The notes: generated from the sequence alone by a model not told the origin. Positions 10,110 through 27,731 are shown, numbered from the stretch's first letter. The stretch: DNA of 44,985 nt from an uncultured Candidatus Poseidoniales archaeon (GCA_964016345.1 CAXHFM010000002.1:1-44985), one strand, 5' to 3'. Numbers and translations are program-made.

Positions 10110-11225
10110 TCAGTCGAATCTCTGGAAACCGCTTTCACTCGGTTTTCTACCTTTTCTGGCTATATTAAGGGCTTCTCCAAGCATATCTGCGCTCATCATC
10201 TCCTCATCGAGGCGCTTGTTGGCGACACCGGTTATTATCGACATCACCTTGATGGTGTCACCGAAGGCAGGATCCTGCCTCGCCCCGAAGATAACGTTGG
10301 CTTCAGGGGATAGCCTGGAGGTCATAAGATCACAGACCTGAGTAGCTTGCTCCATTGTCATGTATGGCCCTCCAGTCACGTGTATGAGGGCACCGGTTGC
10401 CCCCTCGATCTCTATGTCCAGTAACGGGTGGTTCAGAGACTCGTGAACGACCTCCTCTGGGCCTTGATCGCTCTCTCCGTAGAGCATCATGGTGACTCCA
10501 CCGTTCTTCATAATGCTCCTGACGTCAGCAAAGTCCAGATTGATGAGGCTGGGAAGTGTGATCGTCTCGACGACTCCCTTCACAATCTCAGCTATGAGCT
10601 GGTCCATGATACTGAACGCCTCGTCGAGAGGGAGATTGGGCACGAAGTGTAGTAGCCTGTTGTTGTCCAGGACCAGGACGGCGTCCGCCGTGCTCCTAAG
10701 CAGGTCAAGACCCTCCAGGGCCCGTTGCATCCTCTGACGCCTCTCAACTGTGAATGGAGTCGTCACAACTGCTACGACCAGAGCACCTGCTCTCTTCGCC
10801 TCCTCAGCGACGATCGGTGCGATACCAGTACCTGTGCCGCCACCGAGGCCGGCGGTGACGAAGACAAGATCAGCCCCATGTACGATCTTGCCAATTACGT
10901 CCCTGCCAGCCTCGGCGCAACGTCTTCCCATCACCGGGTCCCCCCCTGCACCGAGTCCCCTGGTGATGTGCCTGCCGACGAGCAACTTCTGCATCGCCCT
11001 AGTCAGGTCGAGATCTTGCTTGTCGGTATTGATAGCTACCGTAATCGCACCCTCGACCCCGATGTGTGTTATTCGATTCATGGTGTTGTTGCCCGAGCCC
11101 CCACAACCGCAGACCAGAATCCTTGGGTCCGGAGTTCCGAAGGATTCCAGCTCCCTGTCCGTAAGCGCAGTCTTCATCCTGCCCGAGGATGGCGAGGATG
11201 TCTGAGAATCAATGGCGCCTCTCAC
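10110..11225 (-). CDS. ftsZ: cell division GTPase FtsZ
   Basis: The tubulin signature GLGGGTGTGIAPIVAEEAKRAGALVVAVVTTPF and the N-terminal CGCGGSGNN are present. An alternative start is Met17 at 11177. Confidence 0.93.
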   Translation of the reverse strand: MRGAIDSQTSSPSSGRMKTALTDRELESFGTPDPRILVCGCGGSGNNTMNRITHIGVEGAITVAINTDKQDLDLTRAMQKLLVGRHITRGLGAGGDPVMGRRCAEAGRDVIGKIVHGADLVFVTAGLGGGTGTGIAPIVAEEAKRAGALVVAVVTTPFTVERRQRMQRALEGLDLLRSTADAVLVLDNNRLLHFVPNLPLDEAFSIMDQLIAEIVKGVVETITLPSLINLDFADVRSIMKNGGVTMMLYGESDQGPEEVVHESLNHPLLDIEIEGATGALIHVTGGPYMTMEQATQVCDLMTSRLSPEANVIFGARQDPAFGDTIKVMSIITGVANKRLDEEMMSADMLGEALNIARKGRKPSESGFQRFD

Positions 11226-11397: not shown

Positions 11398-11502
11398 CCG
11401 CGCTTAGCTCAGTTGGCTAGAGCACCTGACTGTAGACTGGAAACACATTGGTTGTAGGCAGCCATCAGGGGGTCCCCGGTTCAAGTCCGGGAGCGCGGAC
11501 CA
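11398..11502 (+). tRNA. tRNA-Tyr(GTA) with a 28-nt canonical-position (37/38) intron and an encoded CCA
   Basis: I folded the cloverleaf by hand:
- Acceptor stem: CCGCGCT / AGCGCGG, with the C1:G72 pair typical of archaeal/eukaryal tRNA-Tyr.
- D arm: GCTC-AGTTGGCTA-GAGC.
- Anticodon stem: CCTGA / TCAGG, with loop CTGTAG(A) and anticodon GTA at 11432-11434.
- T arm: CCCGG-TTCAAGT-CCGGG.
- Discriminator A, then CCA at 11500-11502.
- Intron: 11436-11463, with a relaxed bulge-helix-bulge that can be drawn (central helix CUGU/GCAG; 3-nt bulges AGA and CCA). Confidence 0.9.
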
Positions 11503-12868: not shown

Positions 12869-12924
12869 CTTTCCAATGAGCGTATCGGCGATATGATTCA
12901 AAAGGGGAACGACGACGCTAAACT

Positions 12925-15321
12925 GTGCGGACTACGACGATATTGACTCTGAGCGTCTTGTTGATGGCCACCTGCTCCCCCCTTGTCAATGCAGATACAA
13001 AGGGAGTGATAATCTGTGCCGGTGCTGATATAGAAATGATGCCAGCTAACTGGGAGATTCAGGATCAGGCTTGCGTGAGAGTGGATCTCGGGGTTCTTCA
13101 GCAGGGAGAAACCCTCTCCTTCGATATCTCTACTGACTCCGGGGTGGATATACTGCTATTCTCATCAAACGCTATCACTGTCTACCAGAATGAGCAGTCA
13201 TACAGGAGCGACTCAGTATGGGAGAGCGACTCTGTCTTCGAGGAATTCAATGGCTCTGGAGACTGGCACTGGACCGTCCCATCTGACAGGGATCCAACAC
13301 GCTGGTACATGATCGTGGACAATCTCGCGCACCCTCAAGATTCTGGTTCAGGGGATCAAGGAGGTTCTGGCGCATCGGTGACTCTGGATGTAGCGAAAAT
13401 AGTTCCAGAACCATTCACCCTGGTGGATACCATAGTCAGACTGGATTCCGGAGAGAGCTCAGTACTTTATGGCCCCTTCTCGATGGACGAGGGGACTCAA
13501 GTTAACATCGAAGTGAGTACCATGGAAGGTGCTCCAGATGTATTCCTGATGAATCAGGATCAAGTCGATCTGTATAATTCAGGAGGTACAGCGGCCGCAC
13601 GTATACAAGGAACAGATATGCTTCTTGTCACATCTAGTCGGGACATAGTCTGGACGGTCCCGTCGTCGTTAGATGGAACAAATCTGTATCTAGTCGTTGA
13701 CAACAGACCTGGCCCTTCTGGTGGAGGAGCTGGCACACTGTCAATAGCCTCCACAGTAGTACTGAGCTTAACTCCCATCATGGACCCAACAATAACTGGG
13801 ATCCCGTCCTCTGGAATCGTGGATGTGGGCAATGAGATAACACTAGACGCGTCTGATACTCCAAATCAATCGAATCAGATCTCAGAGTCGGGATACTCAT
13901 GGGACACTAATGGGGATGGATTCAATGATAACTCCGGAGCATCATTCAACATCAGCTGGCCCGAGCCAAGCAACCTAACCATCAGGCTCTCAGTAGTGGG
14001 GATCGATGGAAGGAGTACTAGTGTGTATGAGGAAATAAGAGTCGAGGATATATCTCCTCCTTCAGTGGACATTTCCGTCGATGGTATTCTCGAGAGAGCG
14101 TTCAATGAGGATATCGTAATCATTGCCTCCTTCGAAGATAACTGGGGAATTTCCGTGGTGGAGTGGATAGTAGATGGAATAGTAATCTCAGAGTCCACAT
14201 CCGACTTTGACTCTGCGAAGACTTTCTCACATGTTTTCCAATCAGGAGAAGAATCAGGAATCCACTTGGTCACTCTGAGGGTCACAGATCTCTCTGGAAT
14301 GATTGCGGAAGATACCGCATCCATCCAAGTTTTCGACTCGTCCCCACCTATCGAAGGAGATTATGATGATTCCCAGAACTCCGTTGTCGGTGAGATGATA
14401 ACTCTAGAGGTACCATTTGAGGACGATGAATCTGAGAATATTTACTACTCCTGGGACTTCGATGCCCTTCTGGACTCAGATGGCGATGGCGACGAGGATA
14501 ATGACGAGGATGCTGTCGGACGTACAGTTTCACATGTATTCGATAATTCAGGTGTTTACAGAGTGATTTGCAGAGCTCAGAATGATGAGGGCCTAGTATC
14601 TGAGGCTGAGATTCTAGTATCAGTTACGTTGACTTCTGGAGACGATGAATTTGGTATGACCGAGATTCTGATGGCTGTGGCGGCTCTGATATTACTGGCT
14701 ATCATATCATTCGTCCTTTACCTCAGAATCGCCTCCAACAGAAGAATGTCAGCATTATTGGCAGAAGAGGAAAAATCCGATGATGGTCAGGAATCTCAGC
14801 CAATGGAAATCTCGGTGGAGGACCAGAAGGCAATGTGGGGGGGTAGTGGTACCGTTTCCACCTCCTCCCCTCCTCAGAGTTTTGGGGCAATAGGGAGTGG
14901 TATGTCGGGTTCCATCTCTCCAGATTCAGAGACCTCCTCATTAGATCTCAGCGATGAGGAGTTTGATGAGCTTCTATCAGAACCTAGTACAACGAAGGCT
15001 AACAATCGAGCTGATGATCTCCTGAGTGCGTTCCAAGACGATGACGAAGAAATAGATACCGAAGAGAGTATCGTGGAATACTCCTTTCCAGAAGATGACT
15101 TAGGTGAGGAAGACACTGCTAACGAAGTAAACCCGGCTAAGGTTTTCGAGATAGTCCAGGAAGAACCGGAACTAGAGTCTGACAAGGGCCAGATTAGGAC
15201 CGTAAGGAGCGAGTGCTCCTCCTGTGTAAAGATGTTCGAAGTAGATCTGCCAGAAGGCGTCGATAGAGCAAGGACTGCCTGCCCGCACTGTGGCTCAATC
15301 GAGTCAATAGCCCTTGAGTGA
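12925..15321 (+). CDS. type I membrane surface protein
   Basis: From N- to C-terminus:
- A GTG start and signal peptide (ILTLSVLLMATCSPLVNA).
- Two duplicated modules sharing the D[IV]xL[FM]...WTVPS...Y[ML][IV]VDN pattern.
- About three PKD-like domains, with motifs YSWDTNGDG...IRLSVVGIDGRS and YYSWDFD...VSHVFDNSGVYRVICRAQNDEG.
- A TM helix, ILMAVAALILLAIISFVLYL.
- An acidic cytoplasmic tail of about 200 aa.
- A C-terminal CxxC-x18-CxxC zinc ribbon (CSSC...CPHC). Confidence 0.75.
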   Translation: MRTTTILTLSVLLMATCSPLVNADTKGVIICAGADIEMMPANWEIQDQACVRVDLGVLQQGETLSFDISTDSGVDILLFSSNAITVYQNEQSYRSDSVWESDSVFEEFNGSGDWHWTVPSDRDPTRWYMIVDNLAHPQDSGSGDQGGSGASVTLDVAKIVPEPFTLVDTIVRLDSGESSVLYGPFSMDEGTQVNIEVSTMEGAPDVFLMNQDQVDLYNSGGTAAARIQGTDMLLVTSSRDIVWTVPSSLDGTNLYLVVDNRPGPSGGGAGTLSIASTVVLSLTPIMDPTITGIPSSGIVDVGNEITLDASDTPNQSNQISESGYSWDTNGDGFNDNSGASFNISWPEPSNLTIRLSVVGIDGRSTSVYEEIRVEDISPPSVDISVDGILERAFNEDIVIIASFEDNWGISVVEWIVDGIVISESTSDFDSAKTFSHVFQSGEESGIHLVTLRVTDLSGMIAEDTASIQVFDSSPPIEGDYDDSQNSVVGEMITLEVPFEDDESENIYYSWDFDALLDSDGDGDEDNDEDAVGRTVSHVFDNSGVYRVICRAQNDEGLVSEAEILVSVTLTSGDDEFGMTEILMAVAALILLAIISFVLYLRIASNRRMSALLAEEEKSDDGQESQPMEISVEDQKAMWGGSGTVSTSSPPQSFGAIGSGMSGSISPDSETSSLDLSDEEFDELLSEPSTTKANNRADDLLSAFQDDDEEIDTEESIVEYSFPEDDLGEEDTANEVNPAKVFEIVQEEPELESDKGQIRTVRSECSSCVKMFEVDLPEGVDRARTACPHCGSIESIALE

Positions 15322-15403
15322 GCAATTCTGAGCACGACTCAACCGTTTATTTTGATAATCATGAGGGGCAATACCCTTTAGCGCTCCTCTTTGAGGTCCG
15401 AGC

Positions 15404-18400
15404 ATGACAAAGAGCGGTGTCCGCGTGATTCACAGGGCCCCCCGCCCCGAGAATAACACTGCCTTACTGATTGTAATGCTGATGATAATACCGTTATTCG
15501 CACCAATACAAGGAGCAGAGGCCGAGGCCAGGATCGAGTCGCAAGACTTCGAAGTTCTCGATAGGCTGTCTGACGTCCTAGACCAGCGTGAACAGGTCTT
15601 GCAGTCCAATTCTGTGGGCCAATTGGCTGGACCGGCTATTCAAGGAGTGAAGGATGGAATATCGCAGAGCGGACAGTCTCAGCCACTATCTTCCATAGGG
15701 GACTCCTTAGAAGGGGCCTCGTTCGTTGAAACGTTACCTGAAGAGCCTAATCATCCGCTCCCATATAGGTTGATACTGGGAATTGAAGATGACGCCGTCA
15801 GCGTGGATAACGTCTGGCAGACTCTCGTTAATATCACCGACTATGTGATTCTGACCGAGTACACAGACCTCGATGGCAATGTTGTCAGAGGAACCGAGGT
15901 AGTCACATTCACAGCCAACTTCCTCTCTCTGCTCAATCTGCAAACCGACCCCTTGAGTCATGCCGTGGATATTGACAATGATGGCGATAATGACATTCAA
16001 GTAGGCCTGAGCGTTTCCCTTGGAAATATCGGTCTGGAAAACATAGATATCGAAACTGGGACTTTATGGATTCAGCCATCAGTGTCATACACAGTAGACG
16101 TCCTTGACTCCAGTCAAACTGACAGTGTTTGGGAAGACATGGACTCCCTACAGGTATCATTGATCAAGTCATTCGCTTACTCCAGTCCGGACTCAGTTCT
16201 GGCTCTCGGCGATGGAGAGAGCTACATCTGGGTCATAGACTCCAAATTCTCAACAATGCCACAAGACTTCTCGTTAAGTGTTGGAATTGAGAGGGTATTC
16301 TTCAACGCTAGCGCCGTTCTCCAAGATCTAATCCAGTCGATAGTAAACATTTTTTCATCGGATTTCGATGGCTCTGGACTGACTCTGATAGGCATCACAG
16401 CACCATACTCGATATCTATAGACTCCAGTGAAATGGACTCCTGTCCCGATAGGTATAGTCCCGAACAACTGCTGTTTCTCCCTCCTGAAGAAATAGACTG
16501 TGGGGTTACAGTCGGACTTGGATATGCCAGGTTCTCACCTCCATCAGACGGGGATAGACAGCTATGGGAACTCGCCTACATTAATCTCGATGTCAAACCT
16601 AACGGAGTATCTTCAATGATTCCTGGGGATGTCGAGCTAGTTATCAGGACTGATAGTAGCATCCCAGCATTGGGGGGGATCGAGGGAGACAGGAGCCTAA
16701 CCACGGTAGAGTATTTTGCGGACAGGAGATCTGACCTTCATATTCACTTCCATGAAGATAGATCAGGGGTTTCCCAAGAGGAAAATGGAGGCTCATTTGG
16801 AAATACTACGGAGTCACTCGGATGGCTAAGAGGAATGCCTGAAGGTTCAATGTCCCAGGGGGAGATCACTAGGATATTCAGAATGTTAGGATCATCAGAT
16901 GAGCCCGAACTACCGGGAGGTAAGCCCAGTAGATTAGGTCTGATCATAGGTATCAAGAACTTCTCAAGGGACACCAGTCCCAATGAAGACGATCCTACAC
17001 TGCCAGTAAATCCAGCCCATCCCCCAATTAGCATGATACTTCTCAGATCCGCCCAACCTTTGGACTCTCTTGATTACAGCTCATGGTACGAAAGAGGGGG
17101 CGAAAACTCAGATCATAGGAGGGTCGACATCTCAATTGAAGCAATTCCAACCGCACTGGTTCTCTACGGATCGTTCGATGTGAGCGGATCAGATGATGAG
17201 GAAAGGGATCTGGACGATTCTGACAATCTGGATTTCGTTTCACGGATTATGGACTCTCTGATTCTTGATTTGGTAGACCTATACCTAGATGTTGGTGGAA
17301 TACTCAACAATATTCCAACTACAGTGGTGGAGGCCATAACAGGCAGTGTCGGTCCTGGAGGAGACCTCCAAGGAAGGGAATTCAACCTCATAATGCATGA
17401 CGACTGGGGTGCTCTCAGGAATGAGATGTCTATAGGTAGAATAGGTCTGCAGATAGGTTCCAGTGCCCATCCGATGATTCAAGGGGACCACCTCGTCCTC
17501 TCCAAGGACAGATCCCTGACTCAGCTGGTAAGCAGGGATGGAAATCTTGTAGATCCTCTAGTCCCTGTCGCTGCTAGTATTGGATTCAGCGGTCTCTCTG
17601 CCTTCTCAATAGATGACGATGACATACTCGATGAATTAACGGCATCCGTCAACACATCGTCCAGTGAGCCATTCAATTTCGTCTATATTGACCACGAGCC
17701 CGGGTCAGTCACGAACTCTTCTTTCCAATCACTCTACATTTCCGATATTCCTGATGATATCAAAATATCTACTGATGCTGAGACTGCAGTTTATACCGCA
17801 TCAGAGGAAATAGGAAAAATTATCTACACTGGAAAGGATATGGAACAAAGGCAGGCGGTTGAGATAACAGACTTCCCTGGCGACTTCTCTGCAATATTCG
17901 GGGGATTTTCTAGCTGGAGTACGACCACCTCTATTGGTTCCATAGAGGCACAGATCACCGATTCTGAGTCACCAGAAACTATGACAGGCGACCACTTCAT
18001 GTTCCACCATGATCCAAATGATGGCACATCAACTATATCTTCCAGAATCTCTGGGATATCAGAAGTAAGCTGGATACCTCCAGTCTCTGAAGGTTCTCTA
18101 GGTCCTGAAGGCAGAGGAAAAGCCTCTATCTCTGCGTCTGGAGATAGATCAATGAGCTTTAGTGTAGATCATGCTCCAACACTAGACGAAGAGCACCTCA
18201 CGGCAGTCGCGATAATTGACCCTCTCCCTTCTTCGGTATCCATAGAGATTCCAACAAGCTCTGACTCTGGACCAGCTCTAGATATCCCAGAGCTCAATAC
18301 ATCTCAGGGACTTTCGGGCCTTGCCTTCTTCCTAGGTGGATTTGCAGACCTTGGCAGATCAGTTAACTCCGTTCTTTCAGGGATAACAACTGATATTTCC

Positions 18401-19801
18401 ACCGGTACCAATTCAGGAGAATCGAACGAGGACTTCTCTTTCGGTATGCAGTTGGAGGCAAACGCACCCTTCGATCTGACAGTTGAGTCAAGTCATGGAG
18501 ATGGCTCACTCGAAGCCCCTCCATGGGTTCATGGTGTATCATTCAGCGCGGCACCATCAGGGATATCAGACGGCTTTCATCTGAGGACGTGGATTCCAGA
18601 TCTTCCCCCAGTAGTAGACATGTCAGTCACTAGGTCTGTCGCAGGGGAATCGCAAGACTGGGAAGTCATGCTCGCGTTGGATGGTTGGATTCCCGCACAT
18701 AGTGAAATGATGATTCAAGCTAGAGGAATTAACGGTCAAGACCTTCTGCTTACTCTAAATGGCTTAGAAGTGGGAACTCCCACTGGGATGCTAGTTGACG
18801 CCACCTTCGAATTCGAGACAGTTGCTGGTATTACAGAGGTCTCCACATCTGCACACTATTCAATGACAGAGAGACTTGACTGGGCACATGTTCTACTGAT
18901 TAACAGAGATGCTGGAAGTCGTACAGAGATAATGATAGATGAGATTCCTGAGGTTATTGACATCACCGCAAGTCTCGGGACTGCTGTTTCTATAGATATG
19001 ACAGTCCCGGATCTTTATCTCAGAGACGATGGTGTAGGAATCAACTCGATTATGATGCAACAGATGCAGTGGCTTGACTCCGCATGGTGGCCAGCGACAA
19101 TATTCCTAACCGATGTACCAGGTTCAATCAACCTAACAACTGAGCCTGACACAAATTTCGATATTACCAAGAGCCTAGCTTTCCAGGGAATACCAATCCT
19201 AGACTATCGAGCTTCTGGAGATGGGATGTCACTCTACATAGAAGCCTTTGGAAGAGCAATAAACACAAAGGGAGACATAATATTGCTCGCAGAAGGGATG
19301 ACTGATAGCCTACAGATCAAACCCGCCGAAGGATTTGGATTGAATATCCGCTCTGGAGGAGAAGGCGTAGAAACGATTTACATTAGATCGAGCAATATTC
19401 CTACGACTCCTCCAGTCACTATGGAGGAAATGGAGGCACTTGGAGAGAACCTGAAAAGCGCTACAATACATATCCACGAGGTAGGCAGAATTTCATCTAC
19501 GTTACCCGGTTATCCAGTGATAGAGCTCTCAGAAGTACAAGGTGGCAGAATCATCATCTCTGCGAGGGCAACCGCTGAGGTGGCGGGGCAGGAGTTCGAT
19601 CTAAGGGGTGTTCTTCTGGACGCACAGACAACCTCTGGCATTCCTACTGCGACGACCATAGGTATCAACGGCCTAGCCTCGGATCTTTCAATTCTGAATA
19701 TGATTCCAGGATTTGACGGAGACACTCAGCATATCATGGTGGTCGAGCCAGTTTCTTCTGGCATAATGACACTACTTGCAACTTTCCTAGGAGGGAGCTG
19801 A
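15404..19801 (+). CDS. giant (1465 aa) acidic secreted or anchored protein with no recognisable domain
   Basis: This is a long uninterrupted ORF. It has an N-terminal signal/anchor (ALLIVMLMIIPLFAPIQGAEA) and only 2 Cys. One DIDNDGDND calcium-type loop is present. A degenerate hPxxhxhx[ST] segment recurs, and a short hydrophobic stretch sits at the C-terminus. A GAGG lies 9 nt before the ATG. Confidence 0.7.
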   Translation: MTKSGVRVIHRAPRPENNTALLIVMLMIIPLFAPIQGAEAEARIESQDFEVLDRLSDVLDQREQVLQSNSVGQLAGPAIQGVKDGISQSGQSQPLSSIGDSLEGASFVETLPEEPNHPLPYRLILGIEDDAVSVDNVWQTLVNITDYVILTEYTDLDGNVVRGTEVVTFTANFLSLLNLQTDPLSHAVDIDNDGDNDIQVGLSVSLGNIGLENIDIETGTLWIQPSVSYTVDVLDSSQTDSVWEDMDSLQVSLIKSFAYSSPDSVLALGDGESYIWVIDSKFSTMPQDFSLSVGIERVFFNASAVLQDLIQSIVNIFSSDFDGSGLTLIGITAPYSISIDSSEMDSCPDRYSPEQLLFLPPEEIDCGVTVGLGYARFSPPSDGDRQLWELAYINLDVKPNGVSSMIPGDVELVIRTDSSIPALGGIEGDRSLTTVEYFADRRSDLHIHFHEDRSGVSQEENGGSFGNTTESLGWLRGMPEGSMSQGEITRIFRMLGSSDEPELPGGKPSRLGLIIGIKNFSRDTSPNEDDPTLPVNPAHPPISMILLRSAQPLDSLDYSSWYERGGENSDHRRVDISIEAIPTALVLYGSFDVSGSDDEERDLDDSDNLDFVSRIMDSLILDLVDLYLDVGGILNNIPTTVVEAITGSVGPGGDLQGREFNLIMHDDWGALRNEMSIGRIGLQIGSSAHPMIQGDHLVLSKDRSLTQLVSRDGNLVDPLVPVAASIGFSGLSAFSIDDDDILDELTASVNTSSSEPFNFVYIDHEPGSVTNSSFQSLYISDIPDDIKISTDAETAVYTASEEIGKIIYTGKDMEQRQAVEITDFPGDFSAIFGGFSSWSTTTSIGSIEAQITDSESPETMTGDHFMFHHDPNDGTSTISSRISGISEVSWIPPVSEGSLGPEGRGKASISASGDRSMSFSVDHAPTLDEEHLTAVAIIDPLPSSVSIEIPTSSDSGPALDIPELNTSQGLSGLAFFLGGFADLGRSVNSVLSGITTDISTGTNSGESNEDFSFGMQLEANAPFDLTVESSHGDGSLEAPPWVHGVSFSAAPSGISDGFHLRTWIPDLPPVVDMSVTRSVAGESQDWEVMLALDGWIPAHSEMMIQARGINGQDLLLTLNGLEVGTPTGMLVDATFEFETVAGITEVSTSAHYSMTERLDWAHVLLINRDAGSRTEIMIDEIPEVIDITASLGTAVSIDMTVPDLYLRDDGVGINSIMMQQMQWLDSAWWPATIFLTDVPGSINLTTEPDTNFDITKSLAFQGIPILDYRASGDGMSLYIEAFGRAINTKGDIILLAEGMTDSLQIKPAEGFGLNIRSGGEGVETIYIRSSNIPTTPPVTMEEMEALGENLKSATIHIHEVGRISSTLPGYPVIELSEVQGGRIIISARATAEVAGQEFDLRGVLLDAQTTSGIPTATTIGINGLASDLSILNMIPGFDGDTQHIMVVEPVSSGIMTLLATFLGGS

Positions 19802-20361
19802 TGGGACTTCTCGAAAGACTCAGACTGGCCGACGTCCCAGAAGAGACTCTGGAAGAGAAAACCGCCCATGATGCCCTGGAGAAAATTGAGGACAGGATTA
19901 GTCAAATCTCCCCTTTCAGGGTTATTTTTGCTTCAATAACCGCATTACTGGTTCTATCAGCGTCTGTAATTGCCTTGGTTTGGCTAGTCCCTTATGATAG
20001 GGTATCTGTAGATGTGATATACAAACAAGCTGGATCTAGTCACATTGTCCTCTCGGAGATAAATAACCAGGGCAGTAGGGCAATCGAATCGGTCTCACTA
20101 GATCTCGTGTTCATTGATTCGGAAGATATTGAGATACAAAGGATCCACTTTGAATCAGAAAGAATACCAGCACACAAGTCAGTTGCAGGAGACGAATTGG
20201 AGATGATTGTTAACGGGGAGTCGGTTTGGGACAATTACTCTATCGAAATCATTCTAACATACGACTACTACGGCGGTAGTATCTACGAGAAAAACACCAT
20301 GGATGTCGGAGACTGGACTCTAGAACTATTCACAATGAGGCCGCCATTGCAAATTCTATGA
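19801..20361 (+). CDS. small type II membrane protein with one NxG beta-sandwich (CARDB/NEW3-like) ectodomain
   Basis: The ATG shares its A with the TGA of the upstream giant gene (TGATG). The N-terminal 38 aa are charged, followed by a TM segment (FRVIFASITALLVLSASVIALVWLV). The motif LSEINNQGSRAIESVSLDLVF is present. Confidence 0.6.
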   Translation: MGLLERLRLADVPEETLEEKTAHDALEKIEDRISQISPFRVIFASITALLVLSASVIALVWLVPYDRVSVDVIYKQAGSSHIVLSEINNQGSRAIESVSLDLVFIDSEDIEIQRIHFESERIPAHKSVAGDELEMIVNGESVWDNYSIEIILTYDYYGGSIYEKNTMDVGDWTLELFTMRPPLQIL

Positions 20362-20363
20362 TA

Positions 20364-20377
20364 AACTGAGTTCAGTT
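20364..20377. repeat. 14-nt palindrome AACTGA-GT-TCAGTT in the 23-nt gap upstream of the S8 peptidase gene; function unknown
   Basis: Read directly from the sequence. It lies 8 nt upstream of ATG 20385. Confidence 0.5.
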
Positions 20378-20384
20378 AACCCAT

Positions 20385-23300
20385 ATGCTCAAAATGGTCA
20401 TGATGGGGGGAGTTATGATGACCAAGCGCGCCGTTGTCCTAGTACTTGCCGTCTTGCTTTTATCATATCTGCCAATTTTGGGAGACGAAGACGACTCCTT
20501 TGACCATCAATTCGAAGACCCAAGCCCCAATATTGAGAGAGTGGAGATTTCACCTGATTCCACCAGTATCCAAGATCTAGGATTTCCACTTATCTCTGAG
20601 GGATATGAAGAAGCAAGGCAAGCAATCGCCCATTCTAGCATAGGGACTTACACGCCCGAGGGATTAATTCCAAGCACACATATGGACCATTCACTTTCTT
20701 TACCAAGATTGGATCTAGTTCTAGCAATTATCGATGGTCAGATTGGACTTTGGGACTCTAGGTTGGATATTCTACAGATTGAGGGATTATCTATCAGATC
20801 GACAATACCTCCTTCTGGATTCCTAATTCAAGGCTCAGCCGAAGCACTTGAGAGACTGCAGGATATAGAGTCGATCATGGCGATTCATGACGTTCCTAGC
20901 GGATTGATGATTCACCAATCCTTGAGAAATCACCAGTCACCTTCTAACTTCATGGTCGAAGTGATAGGTTGGAAAGGAGATGATATGGTCAGAATGGAAG
21001 ATTCAGGCTTAGAACTACAGGATTCACTACTTACTGCCATGGACTACCTCTCAGATTCATGGTCTCCAGAGAAGGGCGTTTTATGGGGGAGCACATCCTT
21101 CGATAATTTATCTAGGATAGTTTCAATTCCGTCTGTATCGTACATTTCTCCATTACCATCGATAATCCTCCATAACGACCAATCTAGGATAAATATGGGA
21201 ATTAATACTGTGGAAAATGCCTTCATAACAGGTCTAAACGGTAGTGGTCAGATTGTTGCAGTGGGAGACTCGGGATTGGATGGCGATCACGGAGATTTCA
21301 CTGGGAGACTCTCAGGAGTTACTTCCGTTACACCTGGGGATTCTTCTACAGCCGACTTGAGTGATGGACATGGGACTCACGTAGCCTGTACTGTTCTAGG
21401 CTCTGGATTCAGGAGTAATGGAGGTTACCAAGGAATTGCCCCTGAAGCCGATTTATACTTCCAAGCGATGGAGGATGATGATTCTGGTGCTCTTTATAGC
21501 TACGGAATCAACTCAATGTTGAACTCTGCATACAACGCAGGAGCGAGAATACATACCAACAGTTGGGGGTCTCAGAGTGGATTCGGTGGATATTCTACCC
21601 AATCAGAAGACGCAGACGACAGGACTTCCACATGGGATCAATACTGGTCCTATGATGGCATGACTGTATTATTTGCTGCCGGTAATGAAAGGAATGACGG
21701 GGTCTCTGCCCCAGGTACAGCAAAGAACGTAATCACGGTTGGCGGACATAAGAACAGATACAGCGGTGCCCCGGATGAGATGTATTACTGGAGTAGCAGA
21801 GGGCCTACAGATGATGGTAGGATTAAGCCTGATATCGTAGCTCCAGGGGACTATGTGCGGTCATGCAAATCTCAGGAGGCCACTTCAGCAGGTGGTACAT
21901 GGTCCAATACGTGGTATATGGAATATAGCGGTACGTCGATGGCCACTCCAGCAGCCGCTGGATCATCAGCACTTGTAAGGGAGTATCTAACGGAGGTGAT
22001 TGGAAGGCAGGCACCACAGGGATCACTGGTCAAGGCTCTGCTAATACTCGGGGCCAAGGACATGGGAGCTCGTGATATTCCAAACGATGACGAGGGTTGG
22101 GGAAGAGTAGATTTGGTAAATTCCTTGATTCCTGACGGAGAAGTGGGAATTTTCGTTGATGACAGATCTAGGATTGGAAGTGGCCAAGTAGTTGAGTATA
22201 CTTTCGATGTCAATACAGCTGGAAAGGAGTTCAAGGCAGTATTGGCTTGGTCTGATTACCCCGGATCATCAAGCTCTTCCATTCAGCTAAGGAATGACCT
22301 AGACTTAGAGTTGGTATCTCCAGATGGCATTACATACAAGGGTAATGTTTTCACGAATGGACGCTCTACCCAGGGCGGTTCTAAGGATTCAGTGAATAAT
22401 GTTGAAGTCGTAGCTCTCGATAGTACTGCTCAGGGGATCTGGACAATTAGAGTCAAGGATTCACAACATGGAGGTTCAAGAACATGGCAACCATTCTCAA
22501 TAGCCGTAAGAGGGCACAATGTCAATGATCTCAGCCCAGATCCAACTTTCGTTCCAGACTCAATGATTGTATCTACCCCTATTCCGCAAGTAGGTGAAGA
22601 AGTACAGGTTTCAGTACAAATAAAGAATATCGGAGCAGGATCCATCACTGATATACCAGTCATGGCAAGAGTCGACTCCGCTCTTCTTGGAGAGCAGTTG
22701 GTATCTCTATCACCCGGTCAAACAGAGGAGCTATTCTGGTCCTGGACTCCTGAAACAGAAGGGGACTCTGCTTTCGAGTTCTTCATTGATCCGAACAACC
22801 AATTTGATGAAATGTCAGATTCGAATAATTATTTTGGTGAGATAGTAATTGTCAGTGCTCCCGGAGTCAGGATTTCCGCACTTGAGGATACTCTCACAGT
22901 GGTCGATGCTTCTTCTACAACTTCAACTTGGGATATAATACTGACAAATACTGCACTTTTCGAAACTAATGCCACTGTATTTGCCTCTTCCCCTACCAGG
23001 GTTCAAGATGGCACTCAATTCGGGTGGTTCCAGTCCTTTACATCGAACACTTTCAACCTAATGCCAACAGAACAGGTCTCCATTGGAATGACTATGGTGC
23101 ACCCAGCACCACCTCCCCCTGGAACTTATTCCATGACCATATCCGGATACGATATAGAGAACGATGTACTTTCCGAAATGACACTTTACTTCGAGGTTCC
23201 AGTACTGGCAGATGCAAACGTACAATTGTTGAATGAGCAGATTCTAGTCAGTCCTCTCGAACCGACCAAGACACAGATTACTATTGTTAACGAGGGGAAT

Positions 23301-24899
23301 GGTGCCCAATCATATGACGTTGAACTAGTCTCTCCTGCAGGGTGGCACCTAGGCCTCGACTCAATCGGGACATTCGAAGGATCGTCTCATGGGTCAACCG
23401 GAACACTGCAGAAAGGATCTAGCAAGACTGTGGATATCACCATTAACTCGCCAGGGGCGATGATACCATCCGGGACGACGTTCGAAGCCGCAATTATTGT
23501 ACATTCAAGAGTCAGCTCTATATCATGGACACAGGATATATTCCTAATCGTTGGACCTGTAGACAATGTGTCCCTTTCTCCAGTATCAGGAGAGGTAAGA
23601 AACGACATATCTCCAGATTCCACGCTCATTATCGATCTCTCCATCGAGAATCTGGGTAATCGAGATTGGGAACTGACCCCATACCTAATGTCAGCACCTG
23701 GTGGCTGGAATATTGTTGAGATGGATCCAGTTACTGCTCCCGCCGGACAGTCCGTAGATTGGTCCATGAGCCTGCAAGGAAACGGACTAGCCTCGAGTGG
23801 ATTAGTCCAAATCAGATTAGCCACTTCGGATGGATTCAAAATCAACTGGAATACCACAATCGAGGTTTTATCTGCCGCTTCTCCAAGGCTCCTCTTTGAT
23901 CAGGTGTACCTTCCAGACGGTTCCTCTTCCAGCGAAATACTAGGAGCAGGACCCCATCCTGTAGGAAACCCCGGTTTTGATTTACACTGGATGGTCTGGA
24001 ACGAAGGCTCAGGAGTATGGAGACCGTCTTCCAATTTAGAGCTTCCAAATCAGGCGTGGTCATCGTCCTGCTCATCACCATCTTCCCTATCTCCAGGTGA
24101 ATCGGACATAATTGAATGCCTAGTAGTGATCCCGGAAGATGAGCCTGCCAGTTCTGAGCCAGTTATCACCTTAGTAATGGAGGGGGATGGAATAGAGATT
24201 AGAGACAGTAAATCACTCCTCGTCGAACACGCGCCCAGGCTATCTTGGAATCTGAATACAGAACCCATAGCGTACGAAGGATACCCCTCATCTTACAGGA
24301 TAGATGTTACGAATACTGGCAACACAGACATATCCCACACTTTAGATGTCGTTGCCCCGAGCTCTTGGGACGCTAGGGCCATTGACGGAGTCAGAGTAGT
24401 ACTTAGTCCCGGAGAATCCCGTAGTGTTATTTTAGAATTCACCCCTCAAAGTGGGAGTGATGGTACAATCTCATTGAACTTGATAAATGCTCCAGACACT
24501 GAGGGTTCTACATTCGAAATATCCGTCGATGTCAAGCCATCCCTTGGTGGTGACTCTATTCTGGAAACATATCTACCACTATTTTTGAGTATGCTACTAT
24601 TAGCGATAATTGCAGGACTGGGTGCCTTCGCATATGTAAGAACCAATGGAGATCCAATGAGTCTATTCAAGAATAAGGTCGCTGGCAGGAACAAAGGGTA
24701 CAAGGAAGACACCAATATAGCAGAGAGCGGAGTCCCATGTTGGATATGTAGTACCGATACGACGATTGGAAATGCATGGGCCTGCTCATCATGTGGAGCA
24801 AGGTATCACAAGATTGGCCAAGTTACCGGATGTGACATTATTTCAATGGGAAGATGCCTTCACTGCGATGCACTGGTTGATGATTTAGTAGAGGCCTGA
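20385..24899 (+). CDS. giant membrane-anchored subtilisin-like serine peptidase (S8)
   Basis: From N- to C-terminus:
- A signal peptide.
- An I9-like propeptide region.
- The catalytic triad motifs VAVGDSGLD (Asp codon 21267-21269), HGTHVA (His 21369-21371) and GTSMATPAAAG (Ser 21936-21938), plus AAGNE.
- About six NxG beta-sandwich modules, including VQIKNIGAGS, ITIVNEGNGAQ, LSIENLGNRD and RIDVTNTGNTD.
- A TM helix at 24570-24638.
- A Cys-rich cytoplasmic tail at 24738-24866. Confidence 0.9.
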   Translation: MLKMVMMGGVMMTKRAVVLVLAVLLLSYLPILGDEDDSFDHQFEDPSPNIERVEISPDSTSIQDLGFPLISEGYEEARQAIAHSSIGTYTPEGLIPSTHMDHSLSLPRLDLVLAIIDGQIGLWDSRLDILQIEGLSIRSTIPPSGFLIQGSAEALERLQDIESIMAIHDVPSGLMIHQSLRNHQSPSNFMVEVIGWKGDDMVRMEDSGLELQDSLLTAMDYLSDSWSPEKGVLWGSTSFDNLSRIVSIPSVSYISPLPSIILHNDQSRINMGINTVENAFITGLNGSGQIVAVGDSGLDGDHGDFTGRLSGVTSVTPGDSSTADLSDGHGTHVACTVLGSGFRSNGGYQGIAPEADLYFQAMEDDDSGALYSYGINSMLNSAYNAGARIHTNSWGSQSGFGGYSTQSEDADDRTSTWDQYWSYDGMTVLFAAGNERNDGVSAPGTAKNVITVGGHKNRYSGAPDEMYYWSSRGPTDDGRIKPDIVAPGDYVRSCKSQEATSAGGTWSNTWYMEYSGTSMATPAAAGSSALVREYLTEVIGRQAPQGSLVKALLILGAKDMGARDIPNDDEGWGRVDLVNSLIPDGEVGIFVDDRSRIGSGQVVEYTFDVNTAGKEFKAVLAWSDYPGSSSSSIQLRNDLDLELVSPDGITYKGNVFTNGRSTQGGSKDSVNNVEVVALDSTAQGIWTIRVKDSQHGGSRTWQPFSIAVRGHNVNDLSPDPTFVPDSMIVSTPIPQVGEEVQVSVQIKNIGAGSITDIPVMARVDSALLGEQLVSLSPGQTEELFWSWTPETEGDSAFEFFIDPNNQFDEMSDSNNYFGEIVIVSAPGVRISALEDTLTVVDASSTTSTWDIILTNTALFETNATVFASSPTRVQDGTQFGWFQSFTSNTFNLMPTEQVSIGMTMVHPAPPPPGTYSMTISGYDIENDVLSEMTLYFEVPVLADANVQLLNEQILVSPLEPTKTQITIVNEGNGAQSYDVELVSPAGWHLGLDSIGTFEGSSHGSTGTLQKGSSKTVDITINSPGAMIPSGTTFEAAIIVHSRVSSISWTQDIFLIVGPVDNVSLSPVSGEVRNDISPDSTLIIDLSIENLGNRDWELTPYLMSAPGGWNIVEMDPVTAPAGQSVDWSMSLQGNGLASSGLVQIRLATSDGFKINWNTTIEVLSAASPRLLFDQVYLPDGSSSSEILGAGPHPVGNPGFDLHWMVWNEGSGVWRPSSNLELPNQAWSSSCSSPSSLSPGESDIIECLVVIPEDEPASSEPVITLVMEGDGIEIRDSKSLLVEHAPRLSWNLNTEPIAYEGYPSSYRIDVTNTGNTDISHTLDVVAPSSWDARAIDGVRVVLSPGESRSVILEFTPQSGSDGTISLNLINAPDTEGSTFEISVDVKPSLGGDSILETYLPLFLSMLLLAIIAGLGAFAYVRTNGDPMSLFKNKVAGRNKGYKEDTNIAESGVPCWICSTDTTIGNAWACSSCGARYHKIGQVTGCDIISMGRCLHCDALVDDLVEA

Positions 24900-24951
24900 C
24901 AACCGCATCTCCCAAGGTCAGGGGGTGCGAAGACCTTAGAGGGTCGGTACA

Positions 24952-27654
24952 GTGCGAAATGCGATGGTCACAAGGAAGTCGCTCACTTTTCTCACTGTTG
25001 TGATGTTACTGAGCATGTCTGCGACGATAGTTTCAGCCGATGTAGACATCAATCTTTCTGCAAATCCTAGTTCTGCTGAAGCAACAGCAGATGAAGCTGC
25101 AGAATATACGATTATTGTCCAAAATTCCGGTGATGATGACGCTGCGGTATCACTCAGTACCCAACAAGGTGACGATTGTAACGGGTTCTCGTCTACCCTA
25201 GAGACCACATTCGTACAAGTTTCTTCCTCATCATCAGAGTCAGTAACTCTGACAGTAACCGTTACTGAACAGGCAAGTGGAGAGTGTGAGACCACTGTAA
25301 ACGCTCAGGGACAGGTATCCGGCGGAGCCCCCGGAACTCCCTCTAATGCCGATGTAACTGTCACAACCACAGCCGGCGATGGTGGCGGACTTTACTCTGT
25401 GAGCCTATCCACCGATGAACCGTCCACCAAGAATTATGATGGAGAGGATAATCAAGTTGCTTGGGATGTTGATGTGGAGAACAATGGCGAGCAACAGGCC
25501 AATGTACAATTGGAAATGACATCTGACAGTGATTGTGAGTCTGAAGATTTGTCTGCAACAGTAGACCCCTCTGTTCTTCAGTTGGAACCAGAGGGACAGG
25601 AAGAGGTCACAGTAACAATTGATATGCCCAATGGTGCAGAGACAGATGCCGGTTCTCATTGCTTCATCCTCAAGGCTACGGTTACCAATGATCCGAATGC
25701 AGCAGACCAAGCTGAAGACAATCTAACACTGAGCCTTAATGTGCCTCAAATCAAGGAATGCGATGCTTCTCTCCAGTATTCCTCCCATAATTTGGATCCG
25801 GGAGAGTCTGCTCCAAACTCATTCGAGGTTGAGAACATAGGGAACACTGAGTGGACAGTTACCGCCAATGCTCAGTCTCTCGATGGGGACGATATTTCAG
25901 GTTGGGTTGATTTCGATAGCCCACTTAGTAAGCTTCTGGAAGAGCCAGGTAGCTCCGATGATTCTCACACTTTTACATTTGAAGTCTCACCTGATGATTC
26001 TCTTGAGGCAGGGACCCAGGTAGCAATAGGAATCCAAGGAAGAGCAGGATCAGAAATTGGATGCGAGAAAGTACTAACGGTTACCGTAGGACAAGAGTTT
26101 GGAGCCTCTATGTCACTCAGTAAATCCACGCTTTCTAATGTCGAGCCGGGCACTTCAGGAACACTCTCCATGCAGATCACAAACCAAGGAAATGGCCAAG
26201 AAACTATGGCACTAGGAACTTCTGGCGTCCCACCCGGATGGCAAGTCTCATTCAGTCAATCCACTGTTACTCTAGGAAGCTCTCAATCATCTAATAACAA
26301 AGAGACCGTGGGTGTCGAAATCTTTGTTCCGGAAGACGCAAGCGCTGAATCGGATGCACTGATCTCCTTCACTGTGGGCAGAGGAGGAGGGACGACACCT
26401 TACGACTCGAAGGACCTAACTGTTTCAGTTGCACCGAGGCATGAGGTCTCTTCGTCTATGGTTTCGGACCAACAAACAGGTAGATCCGATCAGATAGTAA
26501 AGTTCCCCATTGTAGTCACAAATGATGGTAACATCCGAGATACCTTCAGACTCCAAGCCTGTGATCCCGGAGATCAGACAGGATGCAGTAACCCTATGTG
26601 GGAATCGTCTTTCTCAGATTCCGATGGAAACTCAATAAGCCAAATTGTACTAGATCCAAGCCAGTCTTCACAAGTCTATCTGGACGTGTTAGTCGAGGGT
26701 GAGGAAGATGCCGACTCTGCAAGAGTCTTGGTAAGAATAGCAATTTTCGGAACTAGTGAAACCTCAGAGCATACGGTTTCCGTAGTAGTCTCGAACTACA
26801 ACTATGGAATGGCCGTGTCCCCTCAGTCACCCGGAGAAACACCCGGTCAAATGGATGTTACTTTACCTCCAGGGGGTACTCTGTCAACATTCTTCTGGAT
26901 TGATAATACAGGGGATTATCCAGCCGGTGATACCGCAGTTATCACCATCACAGGATTGGAGTCATCAGTTTCTAGAAATATATTTGTCGATGGAGTGGAG
27001 ATAGAAGACTCCATTCAGATTCCCAAGGAAGGCAGAGTGCTTGCAGAAGTCCAGATGGAGGTAATGGAAGGAGTCTCAAACGGAGTATCGGGAATAATCA
27101 AGGTATCAGCAGCCTCAGAGAGGAATGCTGCACAGACTACCTCGGTTGATGTTTCGATCCAAGTAATGACCATACACGATCTGGTTTTTACTCTTGAGGG
27201 GGTCGACGAGCAAACGGTGAACTATCCAGATAAGGCATTCTTCACAATGTTTGTAACCAATAACGGAAACGTGATTGAAGATGTAGAGATAATCTCAGGG
27301 GAATCACTCAGAGGTTGGACGGTTGATGTTATCGATGATGAATTCCTGCTTCCTCCTGGAGAAACCAGAGAGATTCAGGTTCGAGCTACTCCTCCTTCTG
27401 AACTTCTTTCTGACGACACGTACAGATTTACTGTCATCGCCCAACCGGAGGGTATTCCCGTTGCAGGTCAACCAATCGAACTAACGGTTGTGTCAGTAAC
27501 ATCGAACTCTTTTCTCAATCTCTCACAAACCACTCAAGACTTACTGGTTTACGGCCTCACAGGATTCGGTGCTTTGCTCGTAATCGTTCTTTTCATGAGA
27601 TCTAGGGCGGAAAACAAGAGAATAATTAGAGCACTAGATCAAGACGATTCATAG
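24952..27654 (+). CDS. 900-aa surface protein built from about seven tandem NxG beta-sandwich (CARDB/NEW3/DUF11-like) modules with a C-terminal membrane anchor
   Basis: There is a signal peptide (LTFLTVVMLLSMSATIVSADV). The motif recurs about every 115-125 aa: IIVQNSGDDD, VDVENNGEQQ, FEVENIGNTE, MQITNQGNGQ, IVVTNDGNIR, FWIDNTGDYP, FVTNNGNVIE. The C-terminus is LTGFGALLVIVLFMRSRAENKR. The start is GTG 24952 or ATG 24964. Confidence 0.75.
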   Translation: MRNAMVTRKSLTFLTVVMLLSMSATIVSADVDINLSANPSSAEATADEAAEYTIIVQNSGDDDAAVSLSTQQGDDCNGFSSTLETTFVQVSSSSSESVTLTVTVTEQASGECETTVNAQGQVSGGAPGTPSNADVTVTTTAGDGGGLYSVSLSTDEPSTKNYDGEDNQVAWDVDVENNGEQQANVQLEMTSDSDCESEDLSATVDPSVLQLEPEGQEEVTVTIDMPNGAETDAGSHCFILKATVTNDPNAADQAEDNLTLSLNVPQIKECDASLQYSSHNLDPGESAPNSFEVENIGNTEWTVTANAQSLDGDDISGWVDFDSPLSKLLEEPGSSDDSHTFTFEVSPDDSLEAGTQVAIGIQGRAGSEIGCEKVLTVTVGQEFGASMSLSKSTLSNVEPGTSGTLSMQITNQGNGQETMALGTSGVPPGWQVSFSQSTVTLGSSQSSNNKETVGVEIFVPEDASAESDALISFTVGRGGGTTPYDSKDLTVSVAPRHEVSSSMVSDQQTGRSDQIVKFPIVVTNDGNIRDTFRLQACDPGDQTGCSNPMWESSFSDSDGNSISQIVLDPSQSSQVYLDVLVEGEEDADSARVLVRIAIFGTSETSEHTVSVVVSNYNYGMAVSPQSPGETPGQMDVTLPPGGTLSTFFWIDNTGDYPAGDTAVITITGLESSVSRNIFVDGVEIEDSIQIPKEGRVLAEVQMEVMEGVSNGVSGIIKVSAASERNAAQTTSVDVSIQVMTIHDLVFTLEGVDEQTVNYPDKAFFTMFVTNNGNVIEDVEIISGESLRGWTVDVIDDEFLLPPGETREIQVRATPPSELLSDDTYRFTVIAQPEGIPVAGQPIELTVVSVTSNSFLNLSQTTQDLLVYGLTGFGALLVIVLFMRSRAENKRIIRALDQDDS

Positions 27655-27714: not shown

Positions 27715-27731
27715 CGGTCCCTACGGGACCG
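27715..27731. repeat. perfect 7-3-7 inverted repeat CGGTCCC-TAC-GGGACCG immediately upstream of nuoA; function unknown
   Basis: Read directly from the sequence. It ends 5 nt before the nuoA GTG start (27736). It shares the CGGTCC/GGACCG half-sites with the repeat at 3705-3721. Confidence 0.6.

Follow-up and report, generated by a model that had tools for sequence, protein, structure and literature searches.

Introduction

The closest described counterparts of the locus analyzed here, five consecutive plus-strand open reading frames (ORFs; g1 to g5, named 5' to 3') in a 44,985-nt DNA stretch of an uncultured Candidatus Poseidoniales archaeon (GCA_964016345.1 CAXHFM010000002.1:1-44985; "the window" denotes this whole stretch), are surface and protease systems of other archaea and of Bacillus. 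In the two-component S-layer of Sulfolobales, SlaA is a large (~1400 aa) secreted β-rich protein whose gene is adjacent to, and co-transcribed with, that of a smaller membrane-anchored partner, SlaB (PMC5744192). In Staphylothermus marinus, the subtilisin-family protease STABLE is held off the membrane by binding to the coiled-coil stalk of tetrabrachion, and it has been proposed to serve peptide metabolism or envelope processing. KP-43 and SubHal (1wmd, 5fax) are the Bacillus enzymes that align with g4. Thermoplasmatales that lack an S-layer (Cuniculiplasma, Oxyplasma) are covered by a dense, membrane-attached, non-lattice exterior protein layer (EPL) of ~20 nm with unidentified components (PMC12448462). 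A further set comprises the choice-of-anchor T family (NF041740), for which no tested function was found in the literature, and the CARDB/NEW3 proteins with Ig-like repeats.

Poseidoniales are uncultured, and to our knowledge the molecular make-up of their cell envelope is uncharacterized. The locus is a concrete candidate set for this envelope that is conserved across the order, and its g2-g3 module reaches other Thermoplasmata. It is familiar in kind, being an archaeal surface-protein cluster with an anchored subtilase, and is a real but undescribed locus. An earlier interpretation made from the DNA alone (the sequence-only reading) had held that no such ensemble was characterized, and in the Marine Group II (MGII) literature searched we likewise found no account of the locus or of the g2 and g3 families. 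The module g2-g3 and the architecture predicted for it are unfamiliar in kind; they represent a family and fold without description, and the database names of all members are 'hypothetical protein'. With middling confidence, we propose that the locus is a composite of a g2-g3 core and three separately promoted surface proteins, g1, g4 and g5, likely with a joint role in the cell coat and in foraging.

Gene order and the g2-g3 module

Gene anatomy and topology were analyzed using an ORF listing together with Pfam, NCBIfam and a hydropathy scan (Table 1). The ORF listing reproduced the five plus-strand ORFs of the sequence-only reading with their coordinates, lengths and spacers, which are 82 nt between g1 and g2, a 1-nt overlap of g2 and g3 (TGATG), 23 nt between g3 and g4, and 52 nt between g4 and g5. 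All five products are strongly acidic (net charge -18 to -151). The hydropathy scan indicated signal-like N-terminal segments in g1, g2, g4 and g5, an N-terminal transmembrane (TM) segment in g3, and C-terminal TM anchors in g1, g4 and g5. These results agree with the prediction that every product has a signal or anchor and that four have a TM anchor, g2 being the exception. The view that the opposite strand is free of genes held in part: six minus-strand ORFs of 101-156 aa are present, each nested inside a conserved plus-strand gene. Because g2 homologues carry the organism names Thalassarchaeaceae, Poseidoniales or Thermoplasmatota archaeon, the window organism is assigned to the Thalassarchaeaceae, Marine Group IIb (MGIIb).

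One genome per GTDB species was scanned, which revealed g2 relatives in 154 species, and 80 loci were kept and compared by tblastn with the five products and four flanking genes. The order L15e-PRC-g1-g2-g3-g4-g5-nuoA-nuoB was contiguous and collinear in all Poseidoniales loci (80/80), so the five-gene order is conserved across Poseidoniales, a check that the sequence-only reading had named. All five genes were found in 63/80 loci, with absences only at the ends of runs, mostly at contig ends. Identity to the window ranged from 35-91% for g1 up to 44-98% for g2, and orthologue lengths were almost constant (medians of 799, 1460, 187, 1497 and 896 aa for g1 to g5). The order was also kept in relatives with g2 just 32-36% identical. 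Two such loci, L082 (on a 3.0-Mb contig) and L083, retain L15e, PRC, a g1-like PKD protein, g2, g3, S8, g5 and nuoA, with the five-gene set at 24-45% identity, and contiguity from g2 to g5 persists down to 32-39% identity. The first MGII genome assembly belongs to MGIIa. Equal gene spacing in that assembly (Iverson et al. 2012) is indicated by the numbers of the eggNOG seeds in a published MGIIb gene table, namely MG2_0423 for L15e, MG2_0429 for S8 and MG2_0433 for nuoB. Since the unrelated flanks (L15e, PRC and nuoA/B) are as well conserved in order as the five genes, synteny alone is no proof of one machine.

Deeper relatives were more discriminating between the genes. An exhaustive HMMER search among 1.84 billion representatives yielded 170 g2 relatives (50%-identity clusters) in three identity tiers, of ~55% (MGIIb), 33-41% over the full length, and 19-26%; a further homology search, based on an alignment of the deep tier, brought up only 10 proteins already known. 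Gene contexts were examined for ten deeper g2 relatives. In the 19-26% tier, where source names are all 'Thermoplasmata archaeon' if given, a gene of 148-232 aa lies directly 3' of the g2-like gene and often overlaps it; in L088 the small downstream ORF has 111 aa and is clipped by the contig end. A g3 profile built from MGIIb sequences only matched solely the ORF directly 3' of the g2-like gene in 10/11 distant loci. Neighbours of the g2-like genes in this tier are Pus10, ABC-2 transporters, ftsZ, TatA and translation factors, and no g1, S8 or g5 homologue adjoins g2-g3 in any non-Poseidoniales locus examined. Because only g2 and g3 stay linked in distant Thermoplasmata loci, the gene contexts identify g2 and g3 as an ancient two-gene module, and g1, g4 and g5 as its neighbours at the level of Poseidoniales.

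Several features of the contexts were observed in addition. In L087 (3730-10734), ftsZ and a g2-like gene of 1836 aa lie next to each other in divergent orientation, and in the window ftsZ lies 4 kb 5' of g2; this proximity may be a remnant of an older adjacency or a coincidence. Genes for an ABC-2-type ATPase and permease adjoin g2-g3 in L081 (5354-9802), L086 (5379-9809) and L089 (6378-8329), and one permease has an NPCBM_assoc/NEW3 domain. A gene of the metallo-β-lactamase fold lies between PRC and g1 in L082 (3481-4605), L083 (2900-4027) and 13 MGIIb loci (for example L043, 4960-6000) but is missing at this position from the window, so that genes have been gained or lost at the upstream boundary of the locus.

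The orphan protein g2 and its partner g3

Pfam and NCBIfam gave no match to g2 of the window, and Pfam gave none at E<=1 to 34 diverse members of the family. PDB profile searches with two g2-family profiles (A1 and A4) returned nothing, or noise at E>0.3. Residues 36-770 and 761-1465 were modeled with AlphaFold2 (AF2) from 68-sequence alignments, giving pLDDT values of 72 and 73 and pTM values of 0.74 and 0.72, respectively. The models are almost wholly β and contain two long helices in addition to long antiparallel hairpins. The relatively high pTM suggests that the body of g2 would be compact and not arranged like a string of beads. Foldseek searches of both halves against PDB gave no match at E<1e-3 (best TM-score <=0.15), and the single match of the C-terminal half in BFVD (E 5.6e-4, TM-score 0.06) is not meaningful. 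The matches were generic large antiparallel β-sheet proteins (FadL, LptD, ushers, ApoB and phage fibres) with TM-scores <=0.16 and are not taken as homologues; an outer-membrane β-barrel was considered and rejected as unsupported. The 1465-aa protein, in which the sequence-only reading had found nothing recognizable, thus proved to be an orphan in Pfam, NCBIfam, PDB profiles and Foldseek.

Conservation is even along the 1465 residues of g2, and indels are almost absent. The most conserved stretch is a Gly-rich hydrophobic segment at aa ~967-1000 (GLSGLAFFLGGFADLGRSVNSVLSGI; window 18302-18403), modeled by AF2 as a low-confidence helix. A W-x-H-G motif follows at aa 1041-1044 (window 18524-18535), in which W and G are invariant and H is present in at least 90% of the 34 diverse family members. 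A DxDxDG-type acidic loop is located at aa 189-197 and a long helix at aa ~611-646. The conserved C-terminal tail, H-x-M-V-x-E-P-x-S-S-G-I-L-T-x-L-A-T-x-L-G-G, ends the protein (…EPVSSGIMTLLATFLGGS) without PGF and without a basic tail, and is unlike any classical sorting signal. Because its hydrophobic stretch is only ~14 residues long and no basic tail follows, the C-terminus is unconvincing as an anchor, and a PEP-CTERM/PGF-CTERM-type signal was rejected on the same grounds. None of g1 to g5 has the combination of PGF motif, TM helix and basic tail of a PGF-CTERM/archaeosortase A substrate. A textbook PGF-CTERM archaeosortase signal (…PGFGLLAGVGSLAMAAVAASRSSRDD) was observed elsewhere in the window, in orf273, a protein with a signal peptide and no Pfam domain; the genome therefore uses an ArtA-type system.

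No Pfam family was matched by g3 at E<=1, and g3 meets no model of the choice-of-anchor T or CARDB/NEW3 kind. A CARDB domain in g3 was unsupported (hhalign 3.9%, no Pfam match at E<=1), the N-x-G motif being the only common feature. The three-gene NxG module of the sequence-only reading therefore survives in part: the CARDB domain of g4 is confident, whereas the likeness of g5 is weak and g3 has the motif only. The median spacing of the g2/g3 junction over 76 loci is -1 nt, and alignment of the upstream regions across loci revealed no conserved element before g3. Because the genes overlap and g3 has no element of its own, g2 and g3 are predicted to be co-transcribed.

Family-wide polar residues and motifs (W-x-H-G, D191 and K255), together with the compact-looking models, could also fit an extracellular enzyme or a substrate-handling complex, for instance one acting on a polymer, that works with the ABC-2-type transporter and is not structural. 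In L081 and L086 the ATPase and permease genes diverge from g2-g3, and those of L089 share its strand. However, L081 and L086 are close relatives and amount to roughly one observation, no ABC-2 neighbour is present in the Poseidoniales loci or in L084, L087, L088, L090 and L091, and no catalytic family was matched in Pfam, NCBIfam or PDB. We consider this explanation highly improbable.

Upstream elements and transcription units

Upstream regions were aligned across the orthologous loci, and matches elsewhere in 1.52 Mb served as background. Conserved non-coding elements of 16-19 nt were found 20-40 nt 5' of the starts of g1, g2, g4 and g5 (Table 1). A scan for canonical TATA elements (TTTAWA-type) gave few matches, and visual alignment then showed the conserved GC-flanked TTAG-type elements. 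The element of g2, which is common to genera with ~55% protein identity, consists of a core, found in 37/69 loci vs 4 background matches, and a palindrome next to the ATG with the consensus GCACCTCTTAGAGGTGC, degenerate in the window and found in 52/69 loci vs 4 background matches. This palindrome could be the site of a regulator instead of a promoter.

The elements also bear on two gene starts. The element of g4 overlaps the first listed ATG, and the g3-g4 spacing has an orthologue median of 65 nt vs the 23 nt listed in the window; the true start of g4 is therefore probably ~30 nt downstream, at 20415 or 20418. The true start of g5 is probably the ATG at 24964, ~12 nt downstream of the listed one.

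Similar GC-flanked palindromes, centred on TTAG, TAAG or CTAC, stand ~20-40 nt 5' of starts, including one in the mscS/M14 spacer and one 5' of nuoA; those of the locus recur across genera. Because of these occurrences, the elements may represent a general promoter or operator type of the MGII lineage, used for leaderless or short-leader mRNAs.

Since g1, g2, g4 and g5 each have a conserved element of their own, the locus appears to consist of four transcription units, g1 / g2-g3 / g4 / g5, and not of one operon. A single five-gene operon encoding one stoichiometric envelope machine would fit the common strand, the short spacers, the uninterrupted order in 63/63 complete MGIIb loci, the similar transcript coverage of g1, g2, S8 and g5, and the covariation of rates among all five genes described below. 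It is difficult to reconcile with the four separately conserved elements, with L082, where g1 and g2 are separated by four inserted genes, of which two run on the opposite strand, with the restriction of co-occurrence outside the order to g2 and g3, and with the split of the covariation into {g1, g4, g5} and {g2, g3}. We regard such an operon as very unlikely. The "one co-expressed machine" of the sequence-only reading was thus not shown, given the equally collinear flanks, the linkage of only g2 and g3 outside the order, and the four individual elements.

The membrane-anchored proteins g1, g4 and g5

The g4 protein combines a KP-43-type subtilase with an Ig-like stalk and is predicted from its domains to be membrane-tethered. 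Pfam identified Peptidase_S8 (PF00082; 159.5 bits, cut-off 21.8, 1.5e-46), CARDB (60.5 bits, cut-off 22.7, 1.9e-16) and P_proprotein (1.3e-5). The catalytic residues stand in subtilase order, D295 (DSG), H329 (HGT), N392 (NSWG) and S518 (GTSMA); D295, H329 and S518 are kept in 72/72 orthologues and N392 in 71/72. The whole KP-43 and SubHal enzymes align to aa 274-692 with E ~1e-75 (for KP-43, 9.1e-76; query 282-692 vs chain 17-418). Beyond these enzymes, g4 has a ~250-aa unassigned N-terminal region, the CARDB domain, about five more Ig-like domains (weakly matched), a TM segment and a Cys-rich tail. The stretch after CARDB is an Ig-like stalk of ~570 aa with a second CARDB-like domain (hhalign probability 90%), followed by the TM segment and a Cys-rich, zinc-ribbon-like cytoplasmic tail. 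In keeping a subtilisin-family protease at some distance from the membrane g4 resembles STABLE, from which it differs in having its own Ig-like stalk, TM segment and zinc-ribbon tail; no tetrabrachion-like protein is present at the locus, and an association of g4 with g2 is hypothetical. In L083, the S8 orthologue (12271-16882) is frameshifted over several frames (tblastn pieces of 45%, 32% and 29% identity), representing a pseudogene or else an error in the assembly.

The PKD-like domains of g1 were supported by PKD_4 (47 bits, cut-off 27) and PKD (41.6 bits, cut-off 23.5), and its internal repeats by hhalign (94% probability for N-terminal module 1 vs 2, 95% for PKD 3 vs 1); the N-terminal modules had no Pfam match. 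Its cytoplasmic tail is acidic and poorly conserved and ends in a Cys4 zinc ribbon at aa 764-789, of which C764, C767, C786 and C789 are present in 100% of 66 sequences. The tail cysteines of g4 are kept in ~69% of 72 orthologues, so the Cys4-type tails claimed earlier for two products are real. For g1, every match of a zinc-ribbon Pfam model was under its cut-off. Such cytoplasmic tails are restricted to g1 and g4, and the anchored M14 carboxypeptidase of the window has none.

The g5 protein matched NCBIfam choice_anch_T in four stretches (76.5 bits vs cut-off 70) and, in Pfam, FixG_C (42.7 bits), fn3_5 (35.6) and a HYDIN-type Ig domain (34.7), all over cut-off; NEW3 was under threshold (21.3 vs cut-off 24.4). 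Eight cysteines forming four pairs are 99-100% conserved. The likeness of g5 domains to the CARDB domain of g4, which is bona fide, was weak (hhalign only 12-26%). As the sequence-only reading had stated, the S8 peptidase is the sole catalytic domain among the five that Pfam can name. Two parts that it had treated as unrecognizable fall in known families, g4 as a KP-43-type subtilase and g5 as choice-of-anchor T.

Expression and rate covariation

Normalized transcript coverage was taken from the supplement of Damashek et al. 2021 (PMC9723583) for genes 392-400 of the MGIIb metagenome-assembled genome (MAG) SIMO Bin 19-2, in which two of the listed samples, FN66 and FN71, were informative (Table 1). 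The five genes are transcribed at similar, ordinary levels that are not distinguishable from nuoA and are compatible with co-expression. Co-expression as envisaged by the sequence-only reading is thus matched by similar levels in this data set, which do not set the locus apart from nuoA. The modest transcript level of g2 argues weakly against its being a dominant coat or S-layer gene. A literature search on an MGII S-layer and on metaproteomic evidence for the locus found nothing specific. S8 peptidases dominate the extracellular peptidase transcripts of MGII (PMC5069720), and every MGII MAG of another study has extracellular S8 peptidases (PMC6864105).

Rate covariation was analyzed in 43 loci with all nine genes, in which pairwise protein distances were regressed on a housekeeping background and the residuals correlated. 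The residual correlations were 0.86-0.88 among g1, g4 and g5, 0.66 between g2 and g3, 0.41-0.60 between these two sets, and <=0.39 between any of the five genes and L15e, PRC, nuoA or nuoB. These results are suggestive of two co-evolving blocks, {g1, g4, g5} and {g2, g3}.

The same data address the explanation that the five genes are mere neighbours, that is, independent surface proteins, namely a nutritional exoprotease and two proteins of adhesin-like or spacer type, and an unrelated g2-g3 pair, brought together only through chromosomal collinearity and sharing no role apart from being exported. This explanation accounts for flanks that are as collinear as the genes themselves, for the absence of g1, g4 and g5 beside g2-g3 in the non-Poseidoniales loci examined, for the separate promoter-like elements, for insertions between PRC and g1 as well as between g1 and g2, and for transcript levels that match nuoA/B as well as each other. 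It accounts less readily for residual correlations of 0.86-0.88 (g1/g4/g5) and 0.41-0.66 (pairs with g2 or g3) vs <=0.39 for the flanks, for the contiguity of g2 to g5 at low identity, and for the unusual cytoplasmic zinc-ribbon tail that g1 and g4 share and M14 lacks. We hold it to be a distinct if lesser possibility, and it remains a serious rival.

Comparison with two-component S-layers

The gene pair also invites comparison with a two-component S-layer, in which g2 would be the lattice canopy, g3 a SlaB-like membrane stalk and g4 a STABLE-like S-layer protease. A large secreted β-rich protein coupled to a small membrane protein parallels the bicistronic slaA/slaB (PMC5744192), g2 is S-layer-like in its size, acidity and possible Ca-binding DxDxDG loop, five of its N-X-S/T sequons are kept in at least 92% of orthologues, and STABLE on tetrabrachion is a precedent for a protease on an S-layer. 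However, g2 and g3 have no sequence or fold similarity to SlaA and SlaB, and no Foldseek or sequence match to solved structures was found, archaeal S-layer entries being presumed, but not checked, to be included. N-glycosylation sequon density in g2 is not raised (9 observed vs 8.7 +/- 2.6 expected from composition). The g3 protein has 186 aa vs 475 aa in SlaB and an N-terminal anchor, unlike SlaB; no coiled-coil stalk was recognized in it, although coiled coils were not analyzed. The even, almost indel-free conservation of g2 is unlike that of typical fast-diverging S-layer proteins, and g2 has no PGF-CTERM although orf273 shows that the genome uses that system.

S-layer genes normally rank among the most expressed, whereas coverage of g2 is ~8-fold under L15e and near nuoA. 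In a Red Sea study, the exceptionally abundant MGII transcripts for surface proteins encode disordered, collagen-like proteins instead (PMC5069720). Cultured Thermoplasmatales seen by cryo-electron tomography have no S-layers, and no lattice is known for MGII. The SlaA/SlaB-type reading shares the gene-pair logic but fails the tests of fold, sequon density, expression (on weak data) and anchor type. Neither fold comparison nor sequon density nor expression level thus lent support to the S-layer scaffold suggested by the sequence-only reading, and we judge an S-layer improbable.

A proposed composite surface locus

In the composite reading that we favor, the core would be the translationally coupled g2-g3 pair, in which g2 is a ~160-kDa secreted, compact and almost all-β protein and g3 a small protein that spans the membrane once and has a β-sandwich-like ectodomain. 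Because of the translational coupling and the deep co-conservation, g3 may tether or receive g2 on the outside of the cytoplasmic membrane at a fixed ratio, giving a membrane-attached surface complex with a structural or organizing role. In Poseidoniales, this pair would stand beside three independently promoted type-I membrane proteins. Of these, g4 would act as a tethered endopeptidase lifted off the membrane by a ~700-aa β-barrel/CARDB/Ig-like stalk, and g1, with its PKD domains and zinc-ribbon tail, and g5, with its seven or so Ig-like repeats, could serve as binding or spacer elements. Jointly, we infer, the five products probably belong to a protein coat without crystalline order, which would trap extracellular protein and cleave it for peptide heterotrophy. 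Such a role would suit the peptide-based way of life that has been inferred for MGII. The EPL of Thermoplasmatales, which belong to the same phylum, offers a parallel, as g1 to g5 are ectoproteins with anchors and stalks, of a sort from which such a layer could be made; the likeness is purely an analogy.

Several observations weigh against the composite reading. The flanks are as collinear as the locus, so that synteny within Poseidoniales does not discriminate; g1 is separable from g2, as L082 illustrates; and L089 is a distant locus with no g3 beside g2. Expression rests on the two informative samples. The covariation may just reflect five fast-evolving extracellular proteins, the comparison genes were the flanks only, and the pairwise distances are not independent. 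The AF2 models of g2, which have medium confidence, entered the searches as whole ~700-residue halves, so that likeness at the domain level may have escaped detection.

A bolder extension, which we put forward as unlikely, is that g2-g3 is the conserved core of an unrecognized Thermoplasmatota envelope structure, a novel all-β architecture held by its own single-pass partner, which organizes the non-crystalline exterior protein layer of members lacking an S-layer and which in Poseidoniales recruited a stalked protease and two Ig/PKD proteins with cytoplasmic zinc-ribbon tails into a single surface assembly. If g2-g3 were such an envelope organizer, it would explain how a surface is built in Thermoplasmatota that lack an S-layer, would locate the tethered subtilase behind protein-based heterotrophy, and would open molecular access, for the first time, to the cell envelope of the planktonic Euryarchaeota that are most abundant. 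Should the genes be no more than neighbours, the gain is smaller, consisting of an annotated tethered KP-43-type protease, an orphan family for structural work, and conserved MGII promoter-like elements.

Other features of the window

Table 1. Positions, predicted features and upstream elements of the locus and its surroundings in the window, with transcript coverage of the corresponding genes of MGIIb MAG SIMO Bin 19-2
Feature	Position	Strand	Length	Predicted features or sequence	Loci with element vs background	FN66	FN71
orf286	511..1371	+		7-TM protein
Palindrome in mscS/M14 spacer	3705..3721			CCGGTCCTAAGGACCGG
M14 carboxypeptidase and SNF-family sodium symporter	3757..7793	+		M14: signal peptide, C-terminal TM
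orf273	9243..10064	-		Signal peptide; PGF-CTERM signal
ftsZ	10110..11225	-
tRNA	11398..11499	+	102 nt
L15e						1.24	0.33
Promoter-like element of g1	12888..12905	+		GCGATATGATTCAAAAGG	56/64 (<=3 mismatches) vs 9
g1	12925..15321	+	798 aa	Signal peptide; two N-terminal modules (aa 25-160, 161-290); three PKD-like domains (aa ~291-570); TM 581-599		0.17	0.11
Element of g2	15366..15403	+		Core GGGCAATACCCTTTAGCGC, then palindrome, ending just 5' of ATG
g2	15404..19801	+	1465 aa	Signal peptide, then almost all-β body (AF2); secreted		0.13	0.10
g3	19801..20361	+	186 aa	Short cytoplasmic N-terminus; TM aa 41-59; ~125-aa extracellular β-domain with N-x-G motif; single-pass		0	0.08
Promoter-like element of g4	20378..20393	+		AACCCATATGCTCAAA	39/71 vs 7
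g4 (S8)	20385..24899	+	1504 aa	Signal peptide; ~250-aa unassigned pro-region; S8 domain aa 286-573; β-barrel/P-type 633-697; CARDB 724-817; TM 1397-1415		0.13	0.04
Promoter-like element of g5	24928..24944	+		CGAAG[A/C]CCTTAGAGGG	60/68 vs 5
g5	24952..27654	+	900 aa	Signal peptide; about seven Ig-like (CARDB/NEW3/FixG_C-type) domains; TM 864-882; short basic tail		0.17	0.20
Palindrome 5' of nuoA	27716..27730			GGTCCCTACGGGACC
nuo (complex I) operon	from 27736
nuoA						0.15	0.20

Upstream, the locus is preceded by ftsZ, a tRNA gene, the gene for ribosomal protein L15e and a PRC-barrel gene, and downstream it is followed by the nuo operon. Horizontal transfer was considered and rejected, because the GC content of the locus (0.46-0.48) is the same as that of the nuo region and leaves no foreign signature. 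The tRNA gene between ftsZ and L15e evidently contains an intron; it was detected with Rfam (56.4 bits), and ARAGORN in bacterial mode gave no call for it. The M14 carboxypeptidase gene overlaps the start of the sodium symporter gene by 4 nt, and the pairing of a predicted exopeptidase with a likely amino-acid importer fits surface proteolysis tied to uptake. The C-terminal region of orf286 (…DLVNKGAFGMMIW…) resembles a proteorhodopsin.

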